Shown one piece after another: positions 18,435 through 52,934 of a stretch of DNA of 52,935 nt (positions are counted from its first letter, which is position 1; each line of letters starts with the position of its first letter). Origin of the DNA: a virus (lineage: Duplodnaviria; Caudoviricetes). The DNA lies in IMG/VR virus record IMGVR_UViG_3300034082_003237, positions 1-52,935 of that record; one strand, written 5' to 3'. Position numbers and translations under genes: made by a program. The notes under the pieces were generated by a model, which was not told the DNA's origin, searched no databases, and saw only the letters and a list, made by a program, of their open reading frames with translations.

Positions 18435-18436
18435 GG

Positions 18437-26086: not shown

Positions 26087-26107
26087 CACTAGTATTAGTT
26101 AAACCAC

Positions 26108-26194: not shown

Positions 26195-26195
26195 C

Positions 26196-31085: not shown

Positions 31086-31112
31086 CGATTTAGAGGACAA
31101 CAAATGATAACA

Positions 31113-31722: not shown

Positions 31723-33099
31723 TTACGCTTCTGGAGCTCCGTCGAAGTCAATCGAAACGAACGCTTCTGGACGCTTGACAGCCAGAGCAAGTCTCTGTTC
31801 TGCAAGAATCACGATTGCGTTGCGCACGAAGAAGTCTGAGTGCTGTTCCGAAATTCGGATTGAAGCCTGCTCGCGGTCGTACAGCTGTGCAGCAGTACCG
31901 AAAGCACCGACGAGGCCGGTTCCTTCTGTCATTGCTGGAGTGTCGATAACTGGCATTCTCCAAACGCGTGGCTCGCCACCCATTGCAACCGAAACTGCGA
32001 TGAGGTATTGACCCTGCTCGTCCTTCGTCAACTCGATGTCTTCCCAGTCGTTCGGGTGCAATACAACGCCCGATGGCTCGTAGTAAGCCAAGAAGGACAG
32101 TGTTGCAGCACGACGGATTGCGTCAGCCTTGGTGTCCACCACTGGAAGTGTTGCACCGTCTGACCATGCGTACGTCTGGATGTTTGGTGTCTGCAAAACG
32201 CCCAAGAGGTTCTCGCCAGCGCCATCGCCGTTAAGAATTTGGTTGTCTTCCAGCAAACGAAGTCCGTACATCAACTCGTTGTCGATGATTGAACGCAGCT
32301 GTGGCTCATCGGCAAGGACGTTGCGGTGTGCAGCTTCCCAGTGTGCCAATGTGCGAACAGGTGCCTGCTCACCAACGAATGAGAACGATGACTGTGGCTT
32401 CAACGCAAATGCGCTGTTTCCACCGTTACGCTCAGCAATTGTTGAAGCTGAGTTGACACCAGCAGCGAAGCCGTAACCCTCCTGGATAGGAGTGGTGAAG
32501 CCGAGCTGACGGAAGTATTCGATAACTGCTGCAGTTGTTGTGCGAACTGGGAACAAGTCACGAACACGCTTTGTGCGCATTGGCTGTGTAACCATTGCAT
32601 CGCGCTGTACTGAACCGAACGAACCGATTCGGCTGTTTGTTACGTCAGTGCCAGGAAGTGCTGAGTAAACATCTTTTACGTTGTACGAGCCAGATGTGAA
32701 CGAAGCCTTTACCTGCCATGGTGCAACCATGTTTGCGCCATTGCGGCCATTTGCGAGGGTCTTGAATTCAGCTGAATCCAAGAACATTTCGCCGATTGAC
32801 TTGATTTCACGGCTTGAAAGCTGTGAAACTTCTGCACTTGCTGCAGCAAAAGAGCCTGCAACACTTTCTGCTGGCTGTGAAGCCCATGAATCAACGCTAT
32901 TCATTGTCTGCATACCGTCGATGAGGCTCTTGATTTCCTTGATGTCTGACATGTTCTTGTCGAACGCTGTCTTCTGCTCAGGGGTGACGACAACTGTGCC
33001 GTCTTCTACACGGAATGAATCCGCGATGGCCTTATTGTCGGCCATCTTTCCACGAAGTGCACCTTGCAGTTCGTTTAATCTTGAATTGTCTTGCGACAT
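31723..33099 (-). CDS. HK97-fold major capsid protein with an N-terminal delta domain
   Basis: TLAHW...DEPQLRS.ID..L.YG...EDNQILNGDG...LHP.DW...FVRNAIVILAEQR...RPEAF; AGGAG RBS. Confidence 0.95.
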   Translation of the reverse strand: MSQDNSRLNELQGALRGKMADNKAIADSFRVEDGTVVVTPEQKTAFDKNMSDIKEIKSLIDGMQTMNSVDSWASQPAESVAGSFAAASAEVSQLSSREIKSIGEMFLDSAEFKTLANGRNGANMVAPWQVKASFTSGSYNVKDVYSALPGTDVTNSRIGSFGSVQRDAMVTQPMRTKRVRDLFPVRTTTAAVIEYFRQLGFTTPIQEGYGFAAGVNSASTIAERNGGNSAFALKPQSSFSFVGEQAPVRTLAHWEAAHRNVLADEPQLRSIIDNELMYGLRLLEDNQILNGDGAGENLLGVLQTPNIQTYAWSDGATLPVVDTKADAIRRAATLSFLAYYEPSGVVLHPNDWEDIELTKDEQGQYLIAVSVAMGGEPRVWRMPVIDTPAMTEGTGLVGAFGTAAQLYDREQASIRISEQHSDFFVRNAIVILAEQRLALAVKRPEAFVSIDFDGAPEA

Positions 33100-33244: not shown

Positions 33245-33964
33245 TTAATCTTGTGTCAGTTCTTCTTGTATTGATTTTTTTCTTTTGAGTTTTCCTAGCT
33301 CTTCCCGAAGAACGGTTCGTATTGCATTCCTTTGTTCTGATGCGCGACCCCTTCTTCCAAGAGAGGTTGAGCCTGACAATCTTGCGTAATCGCTCATGTT
33401 CGTGCATGGCATCCAAACAGCTCTTCCGGTTTTGGATATTCTTCGACTTATCCCAATACAGCCCATCTGACGCGAACGAGCGCGGGCTGATTCTGGGTCT
33501 GTAAAAACATCTGGGTCATTGTCCCTTACATATTCCGGACCAGCCATTGAGGCCTTCGCAGAACTTGCACCGAACATGTTCATTGTTGGACCGCCAGAAA
33601 CAGCAGAACCACTTGACACGCCAGAGCCAATATCCTGTGGTGCTGCGAATTGGCTTGGTCCAGAAGTTATTCCAGGACCAGAGCCGATTAGCCCCTGTAT
33701 TGGTCGTTCCCGAAGTTTTTCCCACCCGTCTCTTTTCCTCTTTCGCTTTTTACGACCGATTTGTTCTCTTTTGAAGGAGTCTTCATCTGTGGACTTTGCT
33801 TTCCAATCGGCAGTTTCAGCGCTATTGGAAATCCGCTCCAGAGACTCTTGGGATGCACAGGGCATCCAGTTTCCATCTTCATCCTTGTGCGCCCCACTGC
33901 AGCCAATCATCTCCGCGACACGCAGAGCTTCAATTTTTTTAACCAACTCTTTTTTCTTTGCCAC
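33245..33964 (-). CDS. Head-region protein with two DUF3721-like repeats
   Basis: A..IGCSG.H....WMPC and AR..S..MGC.G....WMPC. Confidence 0.75.
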   Translation of the reverse strand: MAKKKELVKKIEALRVAEMIGCSGAHKDEDGNWMPCASQESLERISNSAETADWKAKSTDEDSFKREQIGRKKRKRKRDGWEKLRERPIQGLIGSGPGITSGPSQFAAPQDIGSGVSSGSAVSGGPTMNMFGASSAKASMAGPEYVRDNDPDVFTDPESARARSRQMGCIGISRRISKTGRAVWMPCTNMSDYARLSGSTSLGRRGRASEQRNAIRTVLREELGKLKRKKSIQEELTQD

Positions 33965-37792: not shown

Positions 37793-40700
37793 TTAGTCGA
37801 CCATCAAATCTAATTGTTCGCTTTTTCTTATGCTGTCAAGTGTTTTCTTTAGTTCTGCTTCAACTTCTAAATCGATGTTTCTCTTAAGTATCTCATCAAC
37901 CTTGGTTGTTGGGCTGGCTGTTTTGTCATACGAACGAGGATTCTCGATATTTATGCCTTGTGGGTGGGCGAACTTAACATATCCAACGCCCATACCTTCA
38001 TACTTTTCTTTAATCTTCTTGGCGGCACGATACTCCTTGAGCTTGACCATGCTTGCGGTGTTTAGGGGCTTACCTCCAGATATTGAATAGAAGTAAGCAA
38101 CCTCTTCTGGGGTGAATCCAAGTTTTTCAAGTTTTGAGGCAAGCGACCCGTCGTTTACAACATCTGAGATATCTTCTGATTCAGCAATCTTGGCCACCTT
38201 CGAATACGGGTAGTGAATTCCCTCAACTTCGTTCTTCTTGAATCCACCAAGTATTTGGGCCTCAAATGGTTCGTGACCTCGGGTCGAAGAGTCAACAGCG
38301 CCAACTGGCGCCATCCTGCCATTTTCATCCATTGAAGCATTGACGGATGAGAAGTTCTTATCCATCTTTGCTCCAAGCAGATGCAGCATCGCTTCGGTGT
38401 TTTGCTTGCTTGAAGCAATTCCATCGGCGTTCATGATTGCGTCAGCTATGTCGTCAGGGTCGTTGGAGTTCATCGCTACTGGTCTGTGCGCCGACTGTAG
38501 AGCCTCTCCACGCCCATATGCGGTGCGATTAGACACTTCGGGCTTGAGGATGACCTCTATCTCCCCGAGCGCTGTAAGCCCGTCTCCAACCAAGTCGTTA
38601 TCACCAATTTCAAAGATTGCATCGCTGCCAATGTTTCCCTTGCCCGATGCGGCGATTCTTCGTTTCTTCTCTTCGTTGTGGGAACGATGCACGACATATC
38701 CACTTACTGGTTTTGCAGAGTTTGGAGTTGATTTGCTAATACCGATTCTGCTGTTGTATTCATTCCTGAGCACATCAGAAGAACGACCAGCCCTTCTTCC
38801 AGAGCTGAATACTGCATCGAAGTCATCAAATTCGGTCTTTGCTGGCTTGGTGTTGTTTATCTCAAACCCTGCAAATGGGTCATCGTATTCATTCGACATT
38901 GGAGTTTGCGAAGGAATCGATGTTATGTCAAAATCTCCAAATGGGTCAGTTTCTGATGGCTTATTCTTACCCCTGCCAAATCTCTTGCCTATCTTTTCGC
39001 GAGCAGAACCAATCACTTGTCCTGCATTCTCAACCAACTCCCCGCTTCCGGCTCGTATGGTATTGCCGAATTCGTCTAGTCTCTGCCTGTTTTCATCTGT
39101 GACGACTCGCTCATCAATGAAATCTGAAGCAATGGTCCAAGCGTCTGCAAGCTTATCTACCACTGGGTCTGGCAGGCCATTTGGTGCGACTCGGTCAACA
39201 GCAGACATTGCTACATCCATCTGGTTTTGGCTTATTCTGCCTCTTTGTACCGCTTCTTCCAACCCTCGTTCGGCAATTTCCCGTCCTGCTCTTCGCGCAG
39301 CATCTACAGCTATCGCGGTGGCGAATCCGACTGGACCACCAGCCGCCAGAGCACCAGCCATATTCACTCCGTACTTAACGCGTTCACGAGTGTCTTCGTC
39401 CGCTCCAGAGCGCTTAAGAACTGCGTCCAATACTCTCCCCGTTGCGCGACTGCCAGCAATACCGGCAACTCTCTGTGTTCTACTAGGGCCGCTTCTTGCA
39501 CCAGAAGAAAGACGACCTGAAGAACCAGTCCCACTTGCAAATAGTTCTCCAAGTTCGCTCAACTTGGACGAGTGATTGATTTTTTCTGAGCCAATATTAT
39601 ATTTTTCACCTAGTGCGAGCATCAACTTGCCGTGGCCACGACGGTGGTAGTCCTCAGGCACGAGTATGTCCGAGATGGTTAGTTCTCCGCGATTCCCAAG
39701 CTCTCCGCCAAGGTCTGTGCGCGCGTGAAGAACTCCAACCTCAATCCCGTTAGACCTCATTCTTACTGTAATGTTCTGTTCCTCGGTATCATCAAATCGA
39801 GTCTTTAATTCTGATTCTATAGATACCTTTATTGCATCTCCATTTTTATCTTTTACAGTCAGCTGTACGTCTCTATTTTTAAGGCGATTCGATTCTTTAG
39901 AAACAGATAGTTTGTCTTTGTCTACCGCTATGGAAACTGAATCAATGTTGAGCTTGACCCTATTCTTCTCTATTCTGTCGATTACCTTGTTGAGGTAATC
40001 CCAGCGACGACCACCAGAACGTTCCGCGTCGCCCACGGTTGAGTATGGGGTCAGGTCTCTGTTGATAACCTCCCACAAATCGTCATTGATGGATATTCTT
40101 GCTTTTGGTAGTTTGCCAAGGGCATAGCCAGTACTGCCATTCTTCTTTAGCAGTTCGATAGCTTCTTCTTCTGAGGCAACCACCCCAACGTCATGGAAAT
40201 CAATTTGTGTTAAGTCATCGATATCGTTGAGGATTGTTGCTATTCTCTTGAATTCTGGAACATCGTAGTAATTGTCTATTGATTCATACGTGTCACCCTT
40301 GTTGAACCATCCACCTCTATCAACAAATCGTTTGAACTCCCTGTCAAATATTACATCCGATTTTCCAACACCAAAAACTGGATACCATTTCCCTACCGGA
40401 TTTTCTTTCCCGCCTTTACCCGTGCTCTGATAGAACGGTATTCTTATTCCGTTTACGTCAACCAAGACCATTGGTCTGCCAGCAACTGAAAAAATTGGCG
40501 ACTTTTTCTGCTGGCCCGTTTCTGAATCAATCAAATCAACTTCTGTTATTTGCAAATCCAGATTTCTTAAATAGTTTTCTGCATCATTAACCTTTTTAAG
40601 CTGTATTTTTCTTTGTTTTGGCGAAACTCTTGCGCCGGAAGACAATCTTCCGGACGATGCGTCAGGGTTGCTGCTTGCTTGACCAGCTCTGCGACCAGAC

Positions 40701-43700
40701 GAAAATTCATCGTCTACCATGACCCCTGTTGTCCCAGTAAATTTGTCTGATATACCAACGCTCTTTTGGGCATTTTTGCTCATTCGCGCTAGTTCTTGTG
40801 GCCACAGTTCAAGTGTTGGCGGTCTGCCTAACTGCTCTTCTGTCCCTGAAGCATTCATTTCAATGTATGCATGTGGCATATTTGAATGCATTTGATAATT
40901 AAATCCTTCGCCTTTTGCGATTCTTCTCACGGCCGATTCCGCTCCAGTGGATGAGCTGTACTCTCCTGGTTCAAAGAAGTGTTTTGCACCAAGTTCTTTC
41001 AGTGCTGTCCTCACCATTTCATTTGAATCACCGTCTTCTGTTGTTTTCACAACCTGAAAACTACCCTTTGGCATCTTTATCCCGCCACCTGGCTTAGGTG
41101 TTAAGACGGTGTCAACTGGGAAAAGAGAATCTACGCTGTCTGGATTATTTTCCAATACATCTCTAAGTCGAACAACTATTACATTTGAACCTGGTTTTTG
41201 TTGGCGAGCAATATGACCACCAGCAATATGGTTAAGCGCAAAGTGTATCGTGTGTCTTTGGACGGTTACTTTTTCTCCTGAATCAGAGGTCAATTCATAG
41301 GCGCTAAGTGGTTTAAGTATTATGTTTCCGTCAGCGTCCAGTGGTGGGTCGTACTGAGTTTCGTGAACCAAGTACAAATCATCCACACCAATTTTGTCTA
41401 GACCCTCTTTTCGTTCTTGCAAAAGGTCGTCCTCAGAGAAAGATATTCTTTCAATAGATTTTTCTCTTTCTTCAGCAATAAGCTCCAAACCAATTTCAGA
41501 AAGCCTGTCGAACTCTTTTGCTGCGTCATCATCACCACGAACAGACGCATAAAACAGTGCGTCAACATCTGTTGACTTTCCAGGATTTCCTCCTTCGCTG
41601 AGGTACGCGGCGCGGGCAGCTACCCACTTCTCGGCAAGTTCCTGCCCTTTCTCACTTGTTCTATCAAGACCAGTTATGGCGTAAGGATTTATCGGTACAT
41701 TTTTTATCTTAGCGTCCGACTCCATTTCAAAATCATTGGTCGGGCCACCGAATACGACAGACTCCCCTCCAATGTCGTAAACATCAAATGCTTTTCTTTC
41801 TTCGCCAAATCGTCCGTCTTTTTTTGCAAATCCTTGAGTTGGAGATTTTTTGAGGTCTCCAGGTTTTAGCGTTCTCTCTATTGCCCCAGATGAAAGTTTT
41901 TCTGGTTTTTCAGAAATTTCTTTTCCTCTTTTTATCCCAAGCTCATCCTCGTTTTGAAAGGTTTCAGCTCGTTCAAGTTTTCTGTATATTTTTGCTCCAG
42001 ATGACAGTTTTGGAGCTGTGCGCCTTGTTTTTGGGTTTAACCGTCTTTCAAGCCTGCGACCAATCGCGCCGCTTTCAAGCACAACATCGTCTGTCTCGGT
42101 TGGCAGAAACTCGCCATCATCAGCAAATTTTGTTAATTGATTCTCTGTCATTCTTACGCGTGGACGCTTGTCTATCCCTGCGTGGAATTCAACTGCTGCA
42201 TCTTCAACGTCTTTAATCAAAGCTTCAGGAGATTTTCGTGCGATTTCGTTAGCCACAACAGAGTCAAGTGAGTCCCTTGACATATCGTTCATTACGTCTT
42301 TTGGACTCTCTCCAGCCATGACGCGCTTAATATCTTCAAATGTCATATTTGCCCTAGTGGCTCTTGCGACTTTTCTTTCTTCGCGCGTCTGTGGAACACC
42401 AAGAACTTCACGTCCTGATGTTGGGTCCGATACGGAACCAGCTGACGTCTTGTATGGTGCTCGCTTGCCAGTCCCCGGTATATAGTCTTGGTCAAATTCT
42501 GGCGGTTGCGGGAGGTTTGTAATTATTTCTCCACGCTTTGCAAGTTCGTCGTCAAGAGATTTCAGGGTTGCCCTGTCGGTTCCTTGAAAACCTTTTTTGT
42601 CGTTTGCATAATCAGGCTCAAGTAATCGCAAATATGTGGCGGCTCTTCTGCTTAGAAGCTCGCCAACATTCATTCGATTAACTGTCTTCATTATTGGACG
42701 ACCAGTTTGTGGGTCGACCTGGTCTGGCTTGATATCTGCTTCGGCGGGCTGAATAAGTGGAGACTTGCCAACTTCTGCCACGTAGTCCTCAGAAGGTGGT
42801 TCGCCAAATGAACCGCCAGCGCTGATTACTTCCCGTTTTGCCTCTATGTTCCTATCTTCGATTTCCACCTCACGCTTCGGTCTTGACGGGGTAGACGGTA
42901 GACCATTCTCTCTTCTTTGAGCAACATACTTGTTGGCGATTCTGTCAATCTTCTTTTTTGTACCCTTTGCGTGCTGCGATGCACTGGGCCCCTCTTGCCC
43001 GATTGACGACGAAACCCTGTCTAAAACATCAACAACATTGTCCTGCTCTTGGACGCGGAGAACGATTGTTCCGTCAGGTCTTACATCAACAACTTTCATT
43101 TTGCCTGGAGGAAGAACTAGTGAACCCTCTTCGCCAAGAACTGTTTCGTTCGTTCTAAATAGTCCTTTATCGCCTTTTGATACCTGCACTATGACGCGAG
43201 ACTTTTCCTTGCCAGCTCGAGTGACAATTTCTCCGTTGGCATCACGAACCTCACCTGGCTTGTGAGGTGATTCATCAGTGATAATCCGACCGCTTACAAA
43301 ACTCTGATTATCAAAGTTTTCGTTTATCGTTTTGAAACCGTTTTGTACATCAAAGTACATCTCGGCTTCGACCTCAATGTCGTCTGGGATAGATGATTCA
43401 TCTATCGCTTCCATCGCTGGAATAAGAACTTTCTCAATTTGGTCTTCCAGTGCTGCAGTCTCGCTACTGGGTGAAAGGTCACCAGCGCTTCTTTGCGCTC
43501 TTCTGTAACGACGATTAATGTTCTTTATGGCAACAACATTGCCGTCTGGGTCAACTAGATTGCCAATATCGGTCAAGGATGGGTCACCAAGTCGTTCTAC
43601 TGCTGCAGCTTGCTCGCCTGTCATTGCATATGATTCATCTTTTTGAATCTTTTTTGCATAGCTGGCACCAGACTTATCGGTCTTGACCTTCTTCGTTTTC

Positions 43701-46501
43701 TTTAGCGCTTGTTGTCTTGGTGGATTCACGAGTTCATCAACCCTTGTGTCAAGCTCACGTCTCTGCTTTGACCAAACCTTTGGGTCTTCGGAGCCATCAA
43801 GTTTTGATTTGTATATTGCCCGAACAATTTTTTCGTCTTCAAGAAGAACCGATTTGGAATCTGCGGATAGTCCTGGCTCTTTTAGCGATGTTCGAATATC
43901 AGCAAGCTTCTGTATTGCATCATCTGGAGACATGTCTTCGGCTTGTTTTGTAAGGTTCTTTATTTCCTCTTGACGAGAACGTGCAGCCATCTCTTCTGGC
44001 CTCAGAATTCCTTCCGAGAACATCTTTTCACGTACCGATTCGCGCATTTTCTTTACATCGCTGCGTCGTCTTTCCTTATCTTCACTGCTGAATCTGCTGG
44101 CCCACTTCTTTTCAATTAAAGCAATCTTTGCATTGTTTTCTTTAATTTTTCTATTTAGCTCTTTAAATTTAGGGGAGTCCTTGCTCTCTCCACTTGCCTC
44201 AAGATTGTCAAACGAGTCATTGTATGCTTCCCTATTGTATTCAAGACCAGTAAGGGCATCAATAAAGTCATCGTTTGTTTTTGATGAATCGTCGGTCCAT
44301 CTCTCAATCTGAGACAGCTCCTTTTTGTGCTCTATGGCAAGTCTTTCTTTAACTTGCGCAATACTGTTGCCTGATAGTTCTGGGTCTGGACCAAGGTTCT
44401 CGTAGTAGCGAGACTCTATTTCTCTCAGTCCATCCGCATCAGACCTTCTTCTGATGTCGACGTACCTACCGTCAGAAACATCATCCATCCATTCGAGGGC
44501 AGCGTCTATATCGTCACCATAGATAAGTCCGAGGTCCCTAAGCGCCCAAAGCTCAGCGGTTGCTTCTAGCGCCCACCACTCTGCTCCCTTGTCATCGTTG
44601 AAATACATTTTTGGATATTCTCCAGCGAGAAATCCAACAACATCAGTCCTTGATAGGGCGTTTTTAAGTGACTCAAGGTCTATCCCATCACCAGACTTTT
44701 GCATAAGCCTAAATACCATCCCGCTATTGAGGTCCCTAATATCATCGACCTTTACCGTCTCACCCTTGTCGTTGATGGCCATAATAAAACCATTAGTTCT
44801 AATCTGTCGTTCTGCTTCTCTGTTGAAAGCTTGCAACTGAATTGTGTGAGCAATTTCGTGTTTCATAATATGTCGTGCGAATGCACGTTCTTCAACCATT
44901 GCCGCTAGTTGTTTTGAATGCCCGTCAACAGTGACCAAGAAGTCAGTTAGGGCCGTTGCTCTTTCGGAGTCAGTCTTTCCACCAACAAAATCTATTCGCA
45001 TTCTTTCGCCTGGGGCGAGACTCGGTATTAATGCTTCCTGATTATTCATTATCTCAGGAATATCAACATTTATAACGCTCATCACGCGCTTGCTGTCGGG
45101 AGATGTGTAGCCACCGGTAGAAGCTTCGTCCATCTGCGGGTCATTCGGACTCTTGACTTCAAAATTAATCTTTGAAATCGTCCTCATGTGTTCTGGGTCA
45201 GCAATGAATGAATCAAGAGCTGATTCAAGTAGCGCTCTTTCGGTTGTGTACCAGCGCTCTGTGTCTGCTGCAATCAAGCTCTTCTGGCGCTCTGGTGAAA
45301 GACCCGAAAATCCTGGAACGTGCGCAAGTCTTGCCTTGACTATTTTGTCAACGTCCTCTGCGGAGAGTCTTGTGCTTGTATCTATCGTCCATGCACCGCT
45401 GTCTCTCAGCTTCTGAAAAACCTCAAATACGTCGTCGTTTGTCTTTCTTTTTTCATCTGTTCTAATTACGCCAAGCGAGTCCATAAGGCTTGCAATGTTT
45501 ATATCTTGTTGCGCGAGCTTGTCCTGCGCGCGAATCATTCCATCAACGAATACTCGGCTTCTTCCGTCCTTATTGGCTTCGCGCCATTTCTTGATGTTGC
45601 GTATTCTTTTGCCGTTTGGGTCTCTCCATACGGTTCTTCCAAGTCCTGGTATTCCACCGTTATCAACAAATGAAATGAATTCAAACAGTTTTTTTGTGGT
45701 GTTCTTTACACGCGTGCCATCGCCCGTATCGATGCCGCTAGCCATTCTCTTAGCAAAGTCAAATATCTCCGATGCGGAGATACCAAAGCAGTTGGCGCCG
45801 GTGCTGTCGGTAAATTGGTTCGCAGCAGGAGTTCCTGGTGGGCATCTAAATTTTCCGTTTTCATCAACGAGTATTCCAAATGCGCTAGCTGCTCTTGCAA
45901 TGAGCGACCTGCCTCTTTGTCCGATTGTTTTTCCTGGAAGTCGCTTTTCGCTATAACCAGAAGAGTTTACCGTCTTGTCTCCGTTGAGGCTGAATGGGTC
46001 AAGAGTCTGTTCCGACTCCTCGATAATCTCGTCAGTCTTTTGATTGACTTTGTATTTCCTTATTCGCAGTTTTGGTTTTGCTGCGAGGACCTTTGCATAT
46101 TCGTCGGCCGAAACAGAACGTGGCTCATCAACCCATCCGAAGTTTGGTTTCTTTACAGCAGATTTGCGCGACCTAATTGATGGAAAAAGTTGAAGAACTT
46201 TACCCTCTTCCCACTTTTGGCTAGCAACATAGTTGTAACCATTGGGAAGTTCAACCATTCCGGGAGTTCCTCCCTTGTTGGTTCTTTTCTTCCCATCAGT
46301 GTCTTTATATGTTTCACTGCCAGTGGCGACATCAAGCGCCTTAACCGACAGTCCTGCATTTAGAGTCGACCTTGTTATTGACTCGACTACAGCCTTTTTA
46401 AACGCAATTGCTGCGTCGTTTAAGTCTCTTCTGCCGACGAGTGGCGATACAAGCCTCTCAGATGTGATTGTACGTGTTTTGTAGAACGGCTTACCCGTCA
46501 T
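37793..46501 (-). CDS. Giant polyvalent protein (~2900 aa): zincin HExxH, degenerate ART-like, GNAT, split DUF3626-like domain, SSG-delimited modules
   Basis: HEIAH...EATAE; SFVSG...LVLPPG; VPEDYHRRGHG; EAQILGG; start at MTGKP avoids overlap with the upstream gene. Confidence 0.85.
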   Translation of the reverse strand: MTGKPFYKTRTITSERLVSPLVGRRDLNDAAIAFKKAVVESITRSTLNAGLSVKALDVATGSETYKDTDGKKRTNKGGTPGMVELPNGYNYVASQKWEEGKVLQLFPSIRSRKSAVKKPNFGWVDEPRSVSADEYAKVLAAKPKLRIRKYKVNQKTDEIIEESEQTLDPFSLNGDKTVNSSGYSEKRLPGKTIGQRGRSLIARAASAFGILVDENGKFRCPPGTPAANQFTDSTGANCFGISASEIFDFAKRMASGIDTGDGTRVKNTTKKLFEFISFVDNGGIPGLGRTVWRDPNGKRIRNIKKWREANKDGRSRVFVDGMIRAQDKLAQQDINIASLMDSLGVIRTDEKRKTNDDVFEVFQKLRDSGAWTIDTSTRLSAEDVDKIVKARLAHVPGFSGLSPERQKSLIAADTERWYTTERALLESALDSFIADPEHMRTISKINFEVKSPNDPQMDEASTGGYTSPDSKRVMSVINVDIPEIMNNQEALIPSLAPGERMRIDFVGGKTDSERATALTDFLVTVDGHSKQLAAMVEERAFARHIMKHEIAHTIQLQAFNREAERQIRTNGFIMAINDKGETVKVDDIRDLNSGMVFRLMQKSGDGIDLESLKNALSRTDVVGFLAGEYPKMYFNDDKGAEWWALEATAELWALRDLGLIYGDDIDAALEWMDDVSDGRYVDIRRRSDADGLREIESRYYENLGPDPELSGNSIAQVKERLAIEHKKELSQIERWTDDSSKTNDDFIDALTGLEYNREAYNDSFDNLEASGESKDSPKFKELNRKIKENNAKIALIEKKWASRFSSEDKERRRSDVKKMRESVREKMFSEGILRPEEMAARSRQEEIKNLTKQAEDMSPDDAIQKLADIRTSLKEPGLSADSKSVLLEDEKIVRAIYKSKLDGSEDPKVWSKQRRELDTRVDELVNPPRQQALKKTKKVKTDKSGASYAKKIQKDESYAMTGEQAAAVERLGDPSLTDIGNLVDPDGNVVAIKNINRRYRRAQRSAGDLSPSSETAALEDQIEKVLIPAMEAIDESSIPDDIEVEAEMYFDVQNGFKTINENFDNQSFVSGRIITDESPHKPGEVRDANGEIVTRAGKEKSRVIVQVSKGDKGLFRTNETVLGEEGSLVLPPGKMKVVDVRPDGTIVLRVQEQDNVVDVLDRVSSSIGQEGPSASQHAKGTKKKIDRIANKYVAQRRENGLPSTPSRPKREVEIEDRNIEAKREVISAGGSFGEPPSEDYVAEVGKSPLIQPAEADIKPDQVDPQTGRPIMKTVNRMNVGELLSRRAATYLRLLEPDYANDKKGFQGTDRATLKSLDDELAKRGEIITNLPQPPEFDQDYIPGTGKRAPYKTSAGSVSDPTSGREVLGVPQTREERKVARATRANMTFEDIKRVMAGESPKDVMNDMSRDSLDSVVANEIARKSPEALIKDVEDAAVEFHAGIDKRPRVRMTENQLTKFADDGEFLPTETDDVVLESGAIGRRLERRLNPKTRRTAPKLSSGAKIYRKLERAETFQNEDELGIKRGKEISEKPEKLSSGAIERTLKPGDLKKSPTQGFAKKDGRFGEERKAFDVYDIGGESVVFGGPTNDFEMESDAKIKNVPINPYAITGLDRTSEKGQELAEKWVAARAAYLSEGGNPGKSTDVDALFYASVRGDDDAAKEFDRLSEIGLELIAEEREKSIERISFSEDDLLQERKEGLDKIGVDDLYLVHETQYDPPLDADGNIILKPLSAYELTSDSGEKVTVQRHTIHFALNHIAGGHIARQQKPGSNVIVVRLRDVLENNPDSVDSLFPVDTVLTPKPGGGIKMPKGSFQVVKTTEDGDSNEMVRTALKELGAKHFFEPGEYSSSTGAESAVRRIAKGEGFNYQMHSNMPHAYIEMNASGTEEQLGRPPTLELWPQELARMSKNAQKSVGISDKFTGTTGVMVDDEFSSGRRAGQASSNPDASSGRLSSGARVSPKQRKIQLKKVNDAENYLRNLDLQITEVDLIDSETGQQKKSPIFSVAGRPMVLVDVNGIRIPFYQSTGKGGKENPVGKWYPVFGVGKSDVIFDREFKRFVDRGGWFNKGDTYESIDNYYDVPEFKRIATILNDIDDLTQIDFHDVGVVASEEEAIELLKKNGSTGYALGKLPKARISINDDLWEVINRDLTPYSTVGDAERSGGRRWDYLNKVIDRIEKNRVKLNIDSVSIAVDKDKLSVSKESNRLKNRDVQLTVKDKNGDAIKVSIESELKTRFDDTEEQNITVRMRSNGIEVGVLHARTDLGGELGNRGELTISDILVPEDYHRRGHGKLMLALGEKYNIGSEKINHSSKLSELGELFASGTGSSGRLSSGARSGPSRTQRVAGIAGSRATGRVLDAVLKRSGADEDTRERVKYGVNMAGALAAGGPVGFATAIAVDAARRAGREIAERGLEEAVQRGRISQNQMDVAMSAVDRVAPNGLPDPVVDKLADAWTIASDFIDERVVTDENRQRLDEFGNTIRAGSGELVENAGQVIGSAREKIGKRFGRGKNKPSETDPFGDFDITSIPSQTPMSNEYDDPFAGFEINNTKPAKTEFDDFDAVFSSGRRAGRSSDVLRNEYNSRIGISKSTPNSAKPVSGYVVHRSHNEEKKRRIAASGKGNIGSDAIFEIGDNDLVGDGLTALGEIEVILKPEVSNRTAYGRGEALQSAHRPVAMNSNDPDDIADAIMNADGIASSKQNTEAMLHLLGAKMDKNFSSVNASMDENGRMAPVGAVDSSTRGHEPFEAQILGGFKKNEVEGIHYPYSKVAKIAESEDISDVVNDGSLASKLEKLGFTPEEVAYFYSISGGKPLNTASMVKLKEYRAAKKIKEKYEGMGVGYVKFAHPQGINIENPRSYDKTASPTTKVDEILKRNIDLEVEAELKKTLDSIRKSEQLDLMVD

Positions 46502-46517
46502 GGCGGGCCGCGCTTTC

Positions 46518-47969
46518 TTAGATTGTGTCGGTTTCTGCTTCGAGCAACTGGAACTCAACGAGCGACTTCATGAAGTCTCCATCCATTGTTTCTTCGTTCT
46601 TCTTGCTCATGCCTTCTCCGCCAGCAACCCAGCCCGCTGGGATGAGGCTTTCTTTTCCAAGTTCTCGAGCACGCTTCATGATGTGACGCTTTGCTGCTTC
46701 CTTGTCCTTTGCGCGACCGAATGCTTGAACGGCATTTCTTAGGTCAGACTCATTCGCGATTGGGAAAGAACCATCTGGAAGTGCATTTCCTTCTTTGGCC
46801 ATAGCATTGCGCTGCTCTTCTGTGAACGCACGCTTAAGAGCAATTTCTGCTGCTTCTGCCTCAATCTCTTCTGCCTCTTCCGGCTCATACTTGTCGTATC
46901 CAAGTACCTCTCCGTCCAGGGCGACGAATACGTCATAAGACTTTCCATCGAATCCTTCAATTTCTACGGCGTATGAGTCGATTCCTTCGAAGCTGTCTGG
47001 TTCAACTGCAACAACGTGACCATCAATTGACTTGACGGCAATCTCCGCTGCATCGGTGAAACTAATCAGATTAAGTTCATCGATTGCTGCCTTCTGCTCA
47101 AATACGCTTTCGTCGAGTTTGTGCCAGCCCATAACCTCGGCTGATGTACCATCGATAAACACTTCGATTGCCTTGCCATCCTTTGCCTGCACATCAATAA
47201 CGAACATGTCTGCATCTGGAGAGTAACCAGAATCGATAACTTTTCCGTCGAACATATCTTCGGCCATGCCTTCAACATGAAGAAGTCCGGGCATTCCTTT
47301 TTCTGCGATACATCCACCAGGGCAGTTCTCGCATACAGAAGTTGTTCCAGAATATGATTTACGCTCAATGGCGCAAACATATCCATGCTCGCCGATGTCT
47401 TCTGATTTAATTCCCATTGAGGACATTCTTCTCTTTTTAAACTTGTCCATCATGGCGTTTACTTTTTCCGCATCGGCCATGTCCTCTTCGTCTTCTGAGT
47501 CCATTTCCTCATCGTCGTCCCCTAGGCCCATTTCGTCATCATCGTCGACTTCTGCTTCGAACTCGTCTTCGTCAGACTGTGGAACGCCCTTCTCTTCTTC
47601 GTCTTCGTCTTCTTTTTTCTTGAACTTGTTCATGGCGGTGTTGATTTTCTCTTCATCATCCATCATGTCTTCTTCTTCCATGTCATCCTCTTCGGACTCC
47701 ATGTCTTCTTCCATGCCCATGCCCTTCATTGGCTTCTTCTTTGGCATCATGCCGTACATCTTTTGCATGTCCTCTTCGGTCATGTCCTCATCCGCAATAT
47801 CCAGGTCGGTAGCAGGAACCATTTTCATCTCTACCGGCATTGCACCGCACTTGCCACAAACCTTCGCTCCTGGGGTAAAACCGCACTCAGAAGCCTCGAG
47901 CCCCTTGGCGCACTTGAGCACAGCCCCTTCGCTGTCGATACTCACTGTTGCCTTGTCGTCGTAAGCCAT
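46518..47969 (-). CDS. Acidic protein with Cys clusters, PepSY-like repeats and a C-terminal DUF6582-like domain
   Basis: ISFTDAAEIA...G.V..VE....YAVEI...G..YDV.V..DGEVL; ALPDGSFPI....L.NA..A.GR; AAGGAG RBS. Confidence 0.8.
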   Translation of the reverse strand: MAYDDKATVSIDSEGAVLKCAKGLEASECGFTPGAKVCGKCGAMPVEMKMVPATDLDIADEDMTEEDMQKMYGMMPKKKPMKGMGMEEDMESEEDDMEEEDMMDDEEKINTAMNKFKKKEDEDEEEKGVPQSDEDEFEAEVDDDDEMGLGDDDEEMDSEDEEDMADAEKVNAMMDKFKKRRMSSMGIKSEDIGEHGYVCAIERKSYSGTTSVCENCPGGCIAEKGMPGLLHVEGMAEDMFDGKVIDSGYSPDADMFVIDVQAKDGKAIEVFIDGTSAEVMGWHKLDESVFEQKAAIDELNLISFTDAAEIAVKSIDGHVVAVEPDSFEGIDSYAVEIEGFDGKSYDVFVALDGEVLGYDKYEPEEAEEIEAEAAEIALKRAFTEEQRNAMAKEGNALPDGSFPIANESDLRNAVQAFGRAKDKEAAKRHIMKRARELGKESLIPAGWVAGGEGMSKKNEETMDGDFMKSLVEFQLLEAETDTI

Positions 47970-48107
47970 AAAATAGAGCTCCTTGCGCCTAATGGTATGC
48001 AGAAGGCAAAACAGCCAACTGTTTATTAAATTATTTGTTTGTAAAAGTATAACCTACCATAGCGCCGCTATGGGAAGTATTAATAATAACGCTTTTTTAA
48101 TTATCTA

Positions 48108-51100
48108 TTAACGTCTTCTCTGTGAGTTGTCACGAAGCTGAAGAAGCTTGGTCCACTGAGATGGACTCAGAAATCCACTAGCTTCGAACTGGGACAAAAC
48201 GCTTTGCGCAAATCCACTCCACTTGGCATTTTTTGCCCAGCCGATTATTTCGTTTTGCATCCTTGGCGTTATGTTCTCTGGGGCTCCATTGTTCTCTCGG
48301 CCAGCAGACAATTTTTCAACTGCGTCCTGGCCAGAGGTGGATATCCTGCGGGCGGCTCTACGCCCACTACTCATGGAGCCACCGCTCTTTATCGACTCAA
48401 CCGTTTCGCTCAGGTCGTACTTTTTGTTGAGCCTGTCAACTATTTTCTGAACCTCATCATCGGTATAGCGAAGCGCCTTTCCTGTGTTTTTGCTAAATTT
48501 TCCTTCTTTTCCTGCCTCAAAAGCTCGAAGTCTCGTCTGAACTTTGGTTGCTCCAACCACTTCGTCCAGCTCTCTGCCTTTTACTCTTTTCCCTTTTCTG
48601 GCAAGAGTGTCGGCGATATTCTTCCAAAGGTCAAATTGCCTTATTGAGTTGTCGAATTTGACTCCCTCTTCCCCAAAAACATCTCCAGCGCTTGGGATTA
48701 TTCCATTATCCACCAACTGCTCAATGATGGACGTCGGAACGCCTTCACTTTTCCACTTTTTGAGCTGAATTGCGGTTGGCGTAATCGTCTCGCCGTCAAC
48801 CTCAAATGTAATGGCTTCCGCCAGTTCGTCATCAGACTCGACACCGAGCGACTCCGCAAGAGCAGAGACCGGGAAGGAACTCTTTGAAATTTCCCTAGCA
48901 ACAAACTCATCAGGCAGTTCGAAGTCGGTCGGGTAGAACTGAGGGGCCATCGCTATGCCCTCTTCTTTGTAATCCTCGTATTCCGCTCTGCTTAATTGGT
49001 TTCCTCTTCGTCGGTCATACCAGTAGGGGGCTGCATCAAAGCCCCAAATTGCCTCAAGCGTCTCATACGACCTGCCTGGGTCTCTGCCGCCGAAGAATGC
49101 CCTGTCAATAAATTCGTAAGCATCTATTTCAGATATTCCTGCCCCATCTTCGAACATCTTTTCAATTTCTGCTTGACTTACGCCAAGGAACTTTGCACTC
49201 TGCTCCATGCTCAAAGGGGTTCCATCTTCGTCTTTAAGAATTTGCTCAAGTTTTTTGGCGTCAAGCATCCATTTACCATCTGGGGACCTGTCGTTATTCT
49301 CTGACATTTTGCCAAATTTGATTTTGACTTTATCCTCAAGGTATCTGCCGACATTGTTTCTTGCTTCACTGTCGGGGAATCTAAGCCGCCCAGAGCTAAG
49401 TCGGTCATTGCCGAATTCATTTTTGCTTGGCCCTGGTCTCTTCTTCCCTGGGATTGTCGCCGCTCTTTGTCTTACCCCATCAGCAAATGCTTGTCTGTCG
49501 GCATCTGACATCGGTCGGCGCTTTGAGCCTTGAGTCCTGGTCTTTTTACCAGAGCTCAACCTGTTTCCATCTGCAGCATTCGCAACACTGGCAGTACCAG
49601 AGCCACTCGGCGCCAGAATATCCTCAGGAAGGTCTGGCGCATCGGTTTTGTATCTATCTAAGCTGACCCCGTTTTTCTCAAAATCACCTTGGATTCTGAA
49701 CAGGTCGCTCAACTCTTGGTCAAGTTTTTTCATAGTTGACGAATAAAAGTTACTCAGTTTTGCTGCAAAATCTTGAGGAGTTGTTGTTTCGTCCACCTCA
49801 TTGATGATGTCCTCTATCCCGTCTATTTGAGTCTTCAGCGAGCTGACGTCCGGCTCATTGCGACTTTTGCGATAAAAGTTATCAACTTCTTTTAACGTAG
49901 CTTCAATGAAATTTGCGTCAATTAGCATCGAATCCAGCGCTTCGGCATCATCCCCATCGGAATTATCAATGTGGAGCTGCATAGCAGTATCAAAATCTAA
50001 TCTCCGGAGTCTATTGTCGGGGTCAAAATGCATTCGTTCCAGGTCGCTAATATTTTCACGCAGATAATCAGTCTGTTCGTTGACCCATTCAAGTAGTTCC
50101 TCGTTTGATACCAGCCCTTCCGTTATTCTGTTAATCGCCATCGACAGGTCGTCCACAAAATCAAAATCATCCTCAGACATGTATTCAAACAAGTCGCCTA
50201 CTCTCGGGAAGTAGTTATCTTTAGGAGTAATTTTTTTTCCATCAAGAACAGAGCGAATAAATTCATATTTTGCCGACACCAACTCATCAACCCCTCTTAG
50301 GGCGTCTCCATGTTGTTCTATCGGAAAGAACATACTGTTTCGGCTGCGGGTAGCCCTCGGATTTCTTATTTCATCCAGAGCGGCTTTTACTATTGTATTG
50401 TTGCTTTCAACCCTGTTAGCAAAATCGGATTTAATGTCTTCTGGAGACCTTCCGGAGCTTAATCCGCGGTCGCCTGAGACCCTGTCGGAGACTACATTCC
50501 TTGTTCTCTGCGCAGAAGAACGAGGAGCGCCCTGTGGGACACCAGGTTGCGTCGGGTTGTATGGGGCATCAGCACCATCGATTATCCCGTCAATCTTGTG
50601 GAGGCTAAAGCTTCTGTACTGACCCGACTCTTCGTCAAGTCCAATAAAATAAACCCCTCCGCCCTTCTTCGTCATCATTCCAGTTGGGTAAACCATTCTT
50701 GGCTTGCCGTTATAACTGAATGAAATGACTTCTCCGTTTCTTCGTATGGCGTCAAAGTCGTACTTCTCAACAGGAACCATGAGTAGATTTGAAGCGATGT
50801 GTCTTGCGTTTGAGCCAGCTTCATCGGTTCTCTTTAGAGCATCTGACACCAAACCAATTTCCTCAACTGGCTTGTCGTCGTATCTCGAACGCATGCCAGA
50901 TGAAAGACGAGAGTTTTCTCTCGAAAGCTCCATCTGAATATCGCTGGCTTCGTCAGCCCAGTCATCCATCGTCCAGTCAAGGCGTGATTCATTTATGTCG
51001 GCAATCATTCTGACGTATTGCTGCCTGTCTGAACGCTCTCTTGAAATCCTTGCGTAGTCTTGGTACTCTGCGTCCCTACGAGCAAGCTCTTCGTCGAGCA

Positions 51101-52934
51101 TGATTGATATTTTTTCAACATCTTTTTCTTGTTTGAATTTTTTAGACCATTCTTGGCGTGTGGATTCATAGCTGGCAATCCACTTGGCCGCATCTTCCGG
51201 ACTCTTAAATTCATCACTTATCAATCCGCCTGGCTCACGCTCGGTGTAACCGTTGCCAAACTCAAGGCGAAGAAGTTCAGCACTCCAGTTACCGAACTCA
51301 TCCTCGGAAATATTCCACTGGTTGGGTGAGCGTGACTCACCAAGGTCTGCGTAATCCTCAAACCAATTCCTATCACCATCACGAGGCCCTTGTGCCATTT
51401 GGAATCTTGTTAGCAGCTCGTCACCAAATGCCCCCATCTCATCGGCAAGAGTTCTAATCGTTCCTTCTGGGTTTCTTACGTATCTATCGCGTGCTCCAGA
51501 AGACAGCGAAGGAGTAATTTCTCCATATTCTCCGTCGTTATTGCCAGGGATGGCCCCTGCTTCGGCAACCTTTTTGCCAAGCTTCTTGCTCATTGATGGA
51601 GACTTCGATATAGCAAAGTCGTGTGCTTTCTGCGCTTCGCCAAAGGCCTTCTTCATTGCATCAGGGTCTGATTTAAGTCTCTTCAACCAACCAGCAAGAT
51701 ATTGAGCGTGGTCTTCTCTTGGCTCTGGTGTTAAACCGTGTGCGGCCATAAAGAACGCAGAGGCTATCTCTGCAATCAATTCTTCCTGTGCGTACTCAGG
51801 GCTTCCGAAGTCGCCAAGGTGGTCTCTGTTAAGACGTGACGAGTGCCCTGTCCAGTGCATTAGTTCGTGGGCGAATACTGCGTAATATCCTTCTTTGCTC
51901 TTGAATGAAGCAAAAGGGGGCAGTGTAATCTCGTCTGTCGACGGTCTATAGAAAGCTCTATCCCCACCGTGATTTACAACCGCTCCAACCTCGGACAGTG
52001 CTTGCTCAAGTTCGGCAACTCTCTCTGCTTCTGGAAGCTCTGCAATCTTAAACTTATCCTTATCAATTCCATCAATTTGGTCAATATTGAATACATGGCC
52101 AGTCTTAAAAAATATTCCACCAGATGAGGCGATTTCTTTGCCGTCGGCATCTTTCTTCTTTGGAAGGACGGTCGGAATCATTATCATGGTTCCCTTCTCG
52201 CCCTTTCGAACTGTTCCGCCCTCTTTCTTCCACTGGTTGAATCCAGCCCAAAGAGGAGTTTTGTAGCCCATTGAGTCTTGCTTAAACATGAGCATCATGC
52301 TGTTGATACCACTGTATGGACGGTTATTGTTTGTTACGTTCTTTGGCAGTGCGGTCTTGTGCCAAGGGAACTCCCATTTTCCGTCGCCAGTCTCCTGGAT
52401 TTTTTCTATCTGTTCAATGAGTTTTTCTTGAACGCTTCTGTATACCTCGTCCATTTTCCCAGATGAAAGTTTTTGGCCAGGCTCCATCCCCTCAAGCGGG
52501 CTAACGTAGTCCCTCTCCGACCGTGGAGGACCCTGGTCTCCCGAAGAGCGACGAACAGAAACCCTAGAGAGGAATTCCTCTGCTGCGGCATCTTCTGCCT
52601 TTAGGAAATCTATGTGCGAGTTGTTTCTAGCTCTGACCTGTTCTTTGCTTATTGACAATTCCTTGGCAACCGCATCCAGTGAGGCACCAGAAGAAATCTG
52701 TTCGTTTATATACTTATTTAGAGCTTCGTCTGCTGCGTTCTCTTCAGCCATTCGATATTGTTCTTGACGGTAAGCCTCAGCGTCATCTGCATCAAGGGTA
52801 GACAGGGTTCCCCTCATCCTCGCCATATGACGCTTTTCTGCTTGCGCAACCTCTTCGCGCCTAATACCGAGAGCTGTAGCCGTTTCGGCCAGTGACTCTC
52901 CACCCATTCTTCTTTCGAATATCTCTCTATCCGA
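48108..52934 (-). CDS. Giant polyvalent protein, 5'-truncated (>1600 aa): sigma70-r4-like HTHs, ArdC (ssDNA-binding + zincin), WYL, HTH, SSG-delimited modules
   Basis: Frame stays open to the window end (SDREIFERRMGGESLAE...); W.FPW...Y.GIN...QW...G..VRKGEKG...VFN..Q; HELMHWTG...YA.EEL.AE; F.Y...RMVYP...YRSFSL.KI. Confidence 0.9.
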   Translation of the reverse strand, partial: SDREIFERRMGGESLAETATALGIRREEVAQAEKRHMARMRGTLSTLDADDAEAYRQEQYRMAEENAADEALNKYINEQISSGASLDAVAKELSISKEQVRARNNSHIDFLKAEDAAAEEFLSRVSVRRSSGDQGPPRSERDYVSPLEGMEPGQKLSSGKMDEVYRSVQEKLIEQIEKIQETGDGKWEFPWHKTALPKNVTNNNRPYSGINSMMLMFKQDSMGYKTPLWAGFNQWKKEGGTVRKGEKGTMIMIPTVLPKKKDADGKEIASSGGIFFKTGHVFNIDQIDGIDKDKFKIAELPEAERVAELEQALSEVGAVVNHGGDRAFYRPSTDEITLPPFASFKSKEGYYAVFAHELMHWTGHSSRLNRDHLGDFGSPEYAQEELIAEIASAFFMAAHGLTPEPREDHAQYLAGWLKRLKSDPDAMKKAFGEAQKAHDFAISKSPSMSKKLGKKVAEAGAIPGNNDGEYGEITPSLSSGARDRYVRNPEGTIRTLADEMGAFGDELLTRFQMAQGPRDGDRNWFEDYADLGESRSPNQWNISEDEFGNWSAELLRLEFGNGYTEREPGGLISDEFKSPEDAAKWIASYESTRQEWSKKFKQEKDVEKISIMLDEELARRDAEYQDYARISRERSDRQQYVRMIADINESRLDWTMDDWADEASDIQMELSRENSRLSSGMRSRYDDKPVEEIGLVSDALKRTDEAGSNARHIASNLLMVPVEKYDFDAIRRNGEVISFSYNGKPRMVYPTGMMTKKGGGVYFIGLDEESGQYRSFSLHKIDGIIDGADAPYNPTQPGVPQGAPRSSAQRTRNVVSDRVSGDRGLSSGRSPEDIKSDFANRVESNNTIVKAALDEIRNPRATRSRNSMFFPIEQHGDALRGVDELVSAKYEFIRSVLDGKKITPKDNYFPRVGDLFEYMSEDDFDFVDDLSMAINRITEGLVSNEELLEWVNEQTDYLRENISDLERMHFDPDNRLRRLDFDTAMQLHIDNSDGDDAEALDSMLIDANFIEATLKEVDNFYRKSRNEPDVSSLKTQIDGIEDIINEVDETTTPQDFAAKLSNFYSSTMKKLDQELSDLFRIQGDFEKNGVSLDRYKTDAPDLPEDILAPSGSGTASVANAADGNRLSSGKKTRTQGSKRRPMSDADRQAFADGVRQRAATIPGKKRPGPSKNEFGNDRLSSGRLRFPDSEARNNVGRYLEDKVKIKFGKMSENNDRSPDGKWMLDAKKLEQILKDEDGTPLSMEQSAKFLGVSQAEIEKMFEDGAGISEIDAYEFIDRAFFGGRDPGRSYETLEAIWGFDAAPYWYDRRRGNQLSRAEYEDYKEEGIAMAPQFYPTDFELPDEFVAREISKSSFPVSALAESLGVESDDELAEAITFEVDGETITPTAIQLKKWKSEGVPTSIIEQLVDNGIIPSAGDVFGEEGVKFDNSIRQFDLWKNIADTLARKGKRVKGRELDEVVGATKVQTRLRAFEAGKEGKFSKNTGKALRYTDDEVQKIVDRLNKKYDLSETVESIKSGGSMSSGRRAARRISTSGQDAVEKLSAGRENNGAPENITPRMQNEIIGWAKNAKWSGFAQSVLSQFEASGFLSPSQWTKLLQLRDNSQRRR

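Follow-up and report, generated by a model that had tools for sequence, protein, structure and literature searches.

Recurrent [LFM]SSG linkers in two giant head-region proteins of an uncultured phage: candidate prohead-protease sites between putatively packaged modules

Introduction

Why should two giant proteins encoded in the head region of one phage carry the same four-residue peptide over and over again? This question is raised by the 52,935-bp stretch of DNA analyzed here in full and called the window below (IMG/VR record IMGVR_UViG_3300034082_003237, positions 1 to 52,935; Caudoviricetes). Its head genes all lie on the minus strand, in the order P0002 (48108-52934; 1608 amino acids (aa), open at the contig end), P0003 (46518-47969; acidic, 483 aa), P0001 (37793-46558; 2921 aa), five open reading frames (ORFs) of 144, 219, 679, 241 and 239 aa, and the gene of the major capsid protein, and it is in P0002 and P0001 that the peptide [LFM]SSG recurs. 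The window is part of a genome of roughly 160-170 kb, that of an uncultured phage. Related IMG/VR sequences are as long as 160-172 kb, and one has terminal repeats. An initial annotation, made from the sequence alone, had proposed that the two proteins are packaged in the head and cut at this peptide into separate effectors that are injected into the host. Here, we confirm the observation and find that the interpretation is supported in part, most strongly by a Peptidase_S78 domain at the head of the full-length homologues of P0002, which lies outside the window.

Results

The motif is enriched in the two giant ORFs

Thirteen [LFM]SSG sites of 12 nucleotides (nt) each were identified, seven in P0002 and six in P0001; the positions given in the initial annotation were all exact, each being the low end of its site. 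These counts were reached by none of 1000 shuffles of either protein: the shuffled sequences contained on average 0.11 motifs for P0002 and 0.21 for P0001, with a maximum of two in both cases, which corresponds to an enrichment of about 30-60-fold (13 sites versus ~0.3 expected) and rules out a chance low-complexity run. When the motif had to be followed by R, K, A or M, all sites remained and the expectation fell to 0.03 for P0002 (seven observed) and 0.06 for P0001 (six observed). The rest of the window, taken as the 84 stop-to-stop frames of at least 100 aa (15,707 aa) in all six frames of positions 1-37792, contains two [LFM]SSG, neither of which is followed by R, K, A or M, and no SSG was found in P0003. 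In essence, only the two giant ORFs contain the motif. The first serine is encoded by TCA, TCG or TCT at eight of the sites and by AGC or AGT at the other five, and the leucine codons comprise both CTN and TTR. As the initial annotation had argued, this mixture of TCN and AGY codons implies that selection acts on the peptide, and the varying codons rule out a DNA-level repeat.

The sites, all on the minus strand like the other features of the head region given below, are well conserved in homologues. In P0002, LSSG is present at 52458-52469 (residues 156-159), 51495-51506 (477-480), 50895-50906 (677-680) and 50451-50462 (825-828), each kept in 6/6 aligned homologues, at 49548-49559 (1126-1129; 6/6, as L or F) and at 49389-49400 (1179-1182; 5/6, with LGSG in locus L019), and MSSG is present at 48363-48374 (1521-1524; 6/6, as M or L). 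In P0001, LSSG is found at 41996-42007 (1518-1521; 9/10 alignment rows at this column, with a fused junction copy in L010), 41885-41896 (1555-1558; 6/10 rows), 40634-40645 (1972-1975; a second SSG lies five residues upstream) and 39500-39511 (2350-2353; 9/9 rows that reach it, as L or F), and FSSG at 40694-40705 (1952-1955; at the edge of a 399-column deletion in L007, L008, L009 and L011) and 38798-38809 (2584-2587; 9/9 rows that reach it). Among 98 distinct instances in homologues, the first motif residue is L in 74, F in 17, M in 5 and I in 2; it is preceded by R (30), K (26), S (15) or G (9), and the motif glycine is followed by R (40), A (20) or K (19) and then by R (44) or K (18). The homologue consensus can be written as (G/S/P/D)-(R/K/S)-[L/F/M/I]-S-S-G-(R/A/K)-(R/K). 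Two variants listed in the initial annotation were also found: LSAG at 48300 in P0002, and LESG at 42068 in P0001, which is present but has no basic flanks. The other SSG of P0002 (ISSG 81, RSSG 130 and ASSG 270, the last falling within the ArdC-N domain) are without the hydrophobic residue of the motif and are absent from 4/5 aligned homologues.

A search with the first 660 residues of a full-length P0002 homologue recovered 271 proteins, 1961-6243 aa in length, at E<=1e-3, and at least 557 stretches of IMG/VR, out of 599 candidates, encode a relative of this protein; no cultured phage covers at least 80% of the N-terminal 660-aa region. Motif statistics refer to the 120 listed of these 271 family proteins. 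LSSG is the commonest, or joint commonest, non-homopolymer 4-mer in 106/120, and 113/120 contain at least four hydrophobic-SSG sites, versus ~0.1 expected in each. Variants of the motif are GLASG in P0080, P0085 and P0089, and LRSSG in L077; a search of IMG/VR for a relative of the GLASG variant (P0085) found none. Which residue precedes the motif (G, K, S or R) depends on the lineage and is common to both giant proteins of one phage. Thus, the two giant proteins have GL at 10/10 and 4/6 sites in L021 and at 8/11 and 5/6 in L024, the giant proteins of L030 have it 10, 3 and 6 times, and those of L077 have LR at 2/2 and 5/8 sites. This pattern fits a single phage-encoded reader that acts in trans.

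Sites in P0002 fall at module borders

The sites divide the part of P0002 encoded in the window into units of differing content. The module fragment at the contig end (52470-52934), when scanned alone, matches a sigma-70 region-4-like helix-turn-helix (HTH; Pfam Sigma70_r4, E 4.9e-07, 29.6 bits). It is followed by a 321-aa module (51507-52469) flanked by two LSSG and containing the ssDNA-binding domain ArdC-N (residues 163-282, Pfam E 6.4e-26) and an MPTase-PolyVal zincin (308-430, E 8e-43) whose HELMH occupies residues 356-360 (51855-51869). The two domains are enclosed by the sites at 157 and 478, which bears out the bracketed ArdC-like unit of the initial annotation. This module matches PHROG 7245, anti-restriction protein (E 8.7e-83), is present in 103/120 family proteins, and is predicted to be an ArdC-type anti-restriction unit. 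After a 200-aa module that has no Pfam match and is present in 30/120 relatives (50907-51506) comes a 148-aa module with a WYL-like domain (50463-50906). The WYL unit proposed earlier is indeed enclosed by sites, at 678 and 826, but its match (Pfam WYL, residues 732-783, E 1.3e-3, 19.1 bits) is below the Pfam cutoff of 21.8; the same sub-cutoff match recurs in 4/4 full-length homologues. The next module, of 301 aa (49560-50462), is all-helical in an AlphaFold model of residues 440-1240, where most 10-residue blocks of model residues 392-654 have a mean predicted local distance difference test (pLDDT) score of 72-90, with short dips; a Foldseek search with this model, which includes the helical module, gave nothing in the PDB at E<=0.001. 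Segmentation at the motifs leaves a 53-aa basic spacer, a 342-aa module and an 88-aa C-terminal unit (48111-49559), of which the 342-aa module is the second most widespread (102/120 relatives). Individual window modules are found in 22 to 103 of the 120 relatives. An ART domain, also named in the initial annotation, was not detected by Pfam.

Full-length homologues of P0002 add Peptidase_S78 and a UvrD helicase, and close full-length relatives have 14-18 motifs. By its predicted domain mix and by adjoining virion genes, P0002 fits the class of polyvalent proteins.

None of the seven P0002 sites in the window, and none of the 14 sites of the L018 homologue, lies inside a Pfam envelope, and units of two domains are left whole between sites (ArdC-N with MPTase, helicase N with helicase C). 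In the AlphaFold model of residues 440-1240 (mean pLDDT 53.8), the five sites covered, from 477-480 to 1179-1182, are all in coil with pLDDT <50, one of them a few residues ahead of a well-predicted helical domain. Hence, as far as Pfam and this one usable model go, the motifs are outside folded domains. Sites are spaced at a median of 138 aa (quartiles 60-292), and 143 of the 1143 spacings are shorter than 30 aa, i.e., tandem sites. BLAST block ends in 119 family proteins, 27,247 in all, are found no more than 5 aa from a site in 16.4% of cases, versus 4.3% for random positions, and the median distance from block end to site is 32 aa versus 101 aa. It is from block ends, and not from alignment gap edges, that the support for borders in the P0002 family comes.

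P0001 consists of a motif-free body and six motif-delimited units

P0001, which has related proteins at ten loci, is made up of a motif-free body of 1517 aa and six motif-delimited units. No Pfam or PHROG family was assigned to it, and a tblastn search against cultured phages gave no match. In the alignment of its family, nine gap events were seen, and the five largest (399-1393 columns) begin and end no more than 7 columns from a site; the other four show no link to sites. A 378-aa cassette (39512-40645) is missing motif-to-motif in L007, L008, L009, L011, L005 and L010, and the junction in L010 joins the upstream flank of site 1 directly to the downstream flank of site 5. This cassette corresponds to a unit that had been annotated as 374 aa long and ending in a GNAT domain. 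Its motif-bounded nature stands, but the only GNAT-type match is Acetyltransf_10 at E 0.15 and 12.5 bits, versus a cutoff of 23.6. An RRGHG stretch is visible by eye in the unit, and GNAT stays a lead. Cassette exchange between the two giants was not found, in that no P0001 module gave a high-scoring segment pair at E<=1e-5 with the 120 P0002-family proteins.

The body contains the sequence HIMKHEIAH (44846-44872), with an HExxH (H563, H567, E568, H571) that is invariant in 8 homologues down to 32% identity, and may possibly be a second, candidate zincin. For residues 200-760, the Atlas pointed weakly to a cluster of putative metalloproteases (score 0.90, with recognition below the usual level). 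A profile of the body searched against the PDB gave one marginal integrase match (E 0.005), which we disregarded. It should also be noted that the listed TTG start of P0001 overlaps P0003 by 41 nt. Translation may really begin at residue 20 (AMTGKPFY), the first methionine that is invariant among its homologues; the residues in between correspond to 46502-46558.

Full-length homologues of P0002 begin with a prohead-protease domain

The contig ends within P0002, whose homologues have lengths of 3190-3567 aa. In 4/4 full-length homologues, residues ~25-184 match Peptidase_S78, the HK97-type prohead protease (E 1.9e-9 to 6.5e-9; 36.6-38.3 bits versus a cutoff of 21), a model on which HK97 gp4 itself scores 105 bits. 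P0002 is probably, as judged from these homologues, the C-terminal 1608 aa of a ~3200-3600-aa cargo polyprotein headed by a prohead protease, the head being encoded beyond the contig end. Residues H68, S132 and H164 of the protease domain are kept in at least 118 of 122 sequences; searched against the PDB by sequence, the head gave 0 matches. A Phage_portal gene lies immediately upstream of the protease-headed homologues, and the fusion is located between this gene and that of the acidic P0003, on towards the capsid protein. The head genes would then read portal, S78 prohead protease with ~3,300 aa of cargo (P0002), P0003, P0001 and major capsid protein. The nearest cultured matches of the protease domain are annotated capsid maturation proteases of Gordonia and Brevibacterium phages, and the nearest capsid protein comes from the same phages. 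The eight head-region ORFs scanned contained no further protease candidate.

Between the protease domain and the first LSSG (residues ~185-660 of full-length homologues; L018 3044-5023), there is a Pro-rich stretch with a Cys-rich element, C-x2-C ... C-K ... C-R-F, which is kept family-wide and is a candidate procapsid-targeting region. In L030, the protease polyprotein is split into two overlapping ORFs (9917-17446 and 17434-20745; 2510 and 1104 aa), with ArdC-N/MPTase in the second, which could reflect a frameshift, a sequencing error or a real gene fission.

The capsid protein has motif-like sequences, and the end of P0003 resembles that of a protease

The major capsid protein (31723-33099; Pfam Phage_capsid E 1.4e-40; PHROG 10) has an HK97 fold with an N-terminal delta-like region and is 36% identical to HK97 gp5 (E 3e-57). 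The maturation cut of gp5, which we take to be K103|S104, aligns with DVYS|ALPG (residues 143-150; 32650-32673), a sequence that resembles the linker motif. The equivalent position reads DVFSS|GLG in ChisanaKitsune, and thus exactly FSS|G at residues 154-157, IYS|GLL in GMA6 and VFS|GMP in L100, and conforms to [YF]-[ST]|[GAT] in 9/9 aligned relatives. Within the delta-like region, a second stretch, QLSSRE (residues 93-98; 32806-32823), is found as QL[ST]SRE in 9 relatives. It is kept in relatives with LSSG and deleted in L102 and L103, whose phages are without the canonical hydrophobic-SSG, one of them having LRSSG. Across motif variants, this comparison of capsid sites is suggestive, although the sample is small and confounded by phylogeny.

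Over its last 92 aa, P0003 shares 52% identity with the C-terminus of the ChisanaKitsune capsid maturation protease (E 4e-26). Given this match, an ancestral protease-scaffold gene appears to have been pulled apart: its protease domain would now head ~3,300 aa of cargo, and its acidic tail would have become the next gene, so that P0003 is probably a scaffold-like remnant of it. The first half of P0003 is extremely acidic, and the protein has two Cys-rich stretches (CxxxxxxC...CxxC and C...CxxCxxxC).

Other genes of the window

The 239-aa protein encoded directly upstream of the capsid gene (33245-33964, minus strand) contains two DUF3721 repeats (Pfam E 3.5e-10), and the Gly/Ser-rich centre between them holds a VSSG. 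Directly downstream of the capsid gene lies a gene for a 177-aa Asp/Asn beta-hydroxylase-like protein (31113-31646, minus strand; PF05118, E 1.4e-15), an unusual neighbour for a head module, and beyond it one for a 543-aa DUF6321 protein (29472-31103, minus strand), whose C-terminal half is Pro/Lys-rich with near-tandem repeats (KPADRYP...KKYPPGQKPSPS.PRDQ). A cluster of tRNA-Arg(TCT), tRNA-Ser(TGA) and tRNA-Thr(TGT) genes is located just past the ribonucleotide reductase gene (26014-26271, plus strand), and a separate tRNA-Met(CAT) gene at 13534-13607 (minus strand).

Discussion

What, then, is the function of the repeated peptide? On balance, we think it probable, if by no great measure, that the motifs are processing sites of the prohead protease that release packaged anti-host modules. 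From the comparisons described above, we infer that the chains are cut, by which protease and at which bond, and that the products are packaged and injected. In the mechanism we propose, the protease head would carry the P0002 cargo into the procapsid, and P0001 would enter another way. At maturation, the serine protease would cut the (G/S/P/D)-(R/K/S)-[L/F/M]-S-S-G-(R/K/A)-(R/K) linkers, which would yield ~8 products from the window part of P0002, and from P0001 the 1517-aa body and six further units. The ArdC-N/MPTase anti-restriction unit would be among the products, as would units with HTH/sigma-r4 and WYL domains, many others and, in relatives, a UvrD-type helicase unit; they would stay in the head and presumably enter the host with the DNA. 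With a common joint on each cassette, insertion, loss or swap of a cassette could occur without breaking the processing. The likeness of the capsid maturation site, the independence of the motif from the MPTase and the lineage-specific flanks argue, indirectly, for the S78 protease as the reader.

Several observations weigh against this proposal. The window itself does not contain the protease head, whose presence is deduced from homologues that are 62-76% identical over the shared part. Nor do the canonical substrates of such a protease contain the motif as such: YSAL and LSSR are the sequences found in the capsid protein, and P0003 has none. Moreover, Gordonia phages have a C-terminal domain behind the protease that is encoded here by a separate gene, and this splitting leaves the targeting of a 3,500-aa fusion to the procapsid unexplained. 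The 1633-aa protease fusion of phage DalanDe has no hydrophobic-SSG repeats, nor does a subclade of short protease proteins (1143-1269 aa) have a recurrent motif. As for the borders, half of the P0002 model has a pLDDT below 50, and the chance that five of five sites fall there is ~3%, which makes the support from it modest, whereas the AlphaFold model of P0001 residues 1500-2650, with a mean pLDDT of 31, is uninformative on domain borders and on the GNAT. Finally, in a six-sequence alignment of the P0002 family, gap edges are not enriched near sites (6/44 within 6 columns versus 9.5% of random positions); the gain and loss of modules at motifs predicted by the initial annotation was thus seen in the five largest gaps of the P0001 family, but not there.

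Two of these exceptions deserve a description of their own. DalanDe gene 27 (L108 10425-15326) has its S78 domain at ~1118-1300, behind roughly 1100 aa of unannotated sequence, and is possibly an independent cargo-protease fusion of a C-terminal type. The short-protease subclade comprises L044, L047, L057, L080, L081 and L087, plus L077, and has capsid proteins without the QLSSRE stretch; within this group, L077 uses LRSSG, twice in the protease protein and five times in the second giant.

The peptide could also be a cleavage site that is cut by a zincin, either the MPTase-PolyVal of P0002 or the HExxH of the P0001 body, in the head or after injection. A hydrophobic residue such as that at the start of the motif would suit the S1' pocket of a zincin, the MPTase is recognized at E 8e-43, and the HExxH is invariant in the 8 P0001 homologues. 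With this HExxH, an alternative protease is present wherever we examined, a point that counts against the prohead protease as well as for the zincin, and autoprocessing by MPTases has been predicted by Iyer et al. 2017 (PMC5512222). We nevertheless regard a zincin as an unlikely reader. The motif persists in 4/4 scanned members in which Pfam detects no MPTase (13 sites in P0109, 10 in P0112, 9 in P0080, as LASG, and 9 in P0073), and in L021 and L077, whose giant ORFs are without MPTase; no MPTase was found in the records of L021, L024 and L077, which are 30-45% fragments. In addition, the HExxH region of P0001 matches no protease family apart from the weak Atlas lead, and a motif-like sequence occurs at the capsid maturation site, which is a substrate of the prohead protease.

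That protease fusion and that capsid site also point to proteolysis rather than to a peptide that stays uncut, serving as a docking peptide for the capsid interior, the scaffold, the portal or a chaperone, or as a site of serine phosphorylation or other modification in a flexible linker. Such a role would agree with the location of the sites in predicted disordered, basic-flanked linkers, with lineage-specific flanks, which would suit a binding partner too, and with the unprocessed delivery reported for the N4 virion RNA polymerase and for ArdC (PMC5512222). However, redundant cuts would better account for one peptide that stands at nearly every border and is in places repeated in tandem at intervals of 5-20 aa, and we consider an uncut motif, if anything, a shade less probable than cutting by a zincin. 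If instead a host protease cut the sites after the phage had delivered intact giants, the disordered linkers would be compatible with it, although nothing points to it directly; a residue before the motif that varies by lineage and is common within a phage fits a phage-encoded reader, and a folded chain of 3,500 aa would have to pass the tail intact, so that this explanation seems to us very improbable. Least probable of all, in our opinion, is that the motif has no protein function and is a by-product of cassette exchange, namely a DNA-level recombination joint. The motif-to-motif indels speak for it, but the switches between TCN and AGY serine codons and between CTN and TTR leucine codons leave no conserved DNA word, and the peptide is conserved in proteins whose N-terminal 660 aa are just 46-50% identical.

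Processing by the prohead protease, if it takes place, would have several implications. RNA viruses and a few eukaryotic DNA viruses are the other groups in which polyprotein strategies are known. More tentatively, and short of calling it probable, we suggest that a large clade of uncultured phages of 150-170 kb uses a true polyprotein strategy, in which a chain of 3,000-4,900 aa, headed by the HK97-type capsid maturation protease, takes at least a dozen anti-host modules along into the procapsid and releases them, together with those of the second giant protein. The linker would be a lineage-tuned, universal plug-in joint, and any domain placed between such joints would be packaged and delivered. 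The earlier prediction of release by embedded peptidases would become a hypothesis at the level of residues, and the substrate specificity of one branch of HK97-type proteases would be defined. Thousands of giant metagenomic phage proteins could be cut automatically into units, most of them candidate anti-defence effectors, and the evolution of these proteins through gain and loss of cassettes would be explained. The linker would also suggest how, following nature's own design, proteins might be loaded into phage heads.

The closest known class is that of the polyvalent proteins, for which the main text of Iyer et al. 2017 (PMC5512222) predicts that domains are released by embedded peptidases, mainly MPTases, and draws the analogy with RNA-virus polyproteins. 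As described there, these are giant multidomain proteins whose genes adjoin portal or head genes and whose domains include ArdC-N, MPTase zincin, helicase and HTH; their packaging and injection are predictions, and all of this also holds or is predicted for the proteins studied here. They differ in that assemblin-like peptidases are, according to the same text, always C-terminal, whereas S78 is N-terminal here, and in that the motif is independent of the MPTase; no inter-module cleavage motif is described in that text, its supplementary files lying outside our search. Among cultured phages, ChisanaKitsune, GMA6 and DalanDe of Gordonia and Cantare of Brevibacterium are the nearest, with capsid proteins of 46-49% and protease domains of 36-42% identity, and ChisanaKitsune has cargo-like genes for an RNA ligase, an ADP-ribosyltransferase and an HNH protein between its portal and capsid genes. 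Their cargo, however, is encoded by separate genes in genomes of ~85-93 kb, and the protease is 485-501 aa long in GMA6 and ChisanaKitsune and 1633 aa in DalanDe.

The internal proteins of T4, like the proteins of phiKZ and SPN3US that are ejected or form the inner body, are likewise packaged in the head, directed at the host and trimmed by the capsid maturation protease (on SPN3US: PMC5694885, PMC7411985 and PMC10052503). In these phages, too, a short cut consensus also occurs in the capsid protein. The known cut motifs are L/I-x-E and S/A/G-x-E. Those proteins, however, are products of separate genes with propeptides and are cut after Glu by gp21-type proteases, whereas the present system would involve a single chain with a dozen or more sites, an HK97-type protease and hydrophobic-S-S-G. 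Polyproteins with a short Gly-containing consensus and a virion protease are also found among the structural or core proteins of African swine fever virus (pp220/pp62, Gly-Gly-X) and adenovirus ((M/I/L)xGG-X). Their processing enzymes are cysteine proteases of clan CE, and no such domain was found here in any Pfam scan, so that the resemblance is operational only, and the adenovirus-type analogy drawn in the initial annotation is not needed. The Dar proteins of phage P1 (DdrB, DarA) are head-packaged anti-restriction proteins, one of which is reported to be proteolytically processed before packaging (PMC5512222); they differ in that they are encoded by separate genes, lack a repeated site motif and are not fused to a protease. 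Our literature search, which did not extend to subscription journals and the 2017 supplements, found no LSSG-type site, N-terminal prohead-protease-ArdC fusion or description of this clade; nor did such a motif come up in work on the cleavage specificity of S78 proteases or on phage polyproteins. The class of proteins and the general idea of their processing are known; the new elements are a defined joint between modules, the connection of this joint with the capsid protease, the flanks that vary by lineage, and the finding that insertions and deletions are bounded by it.

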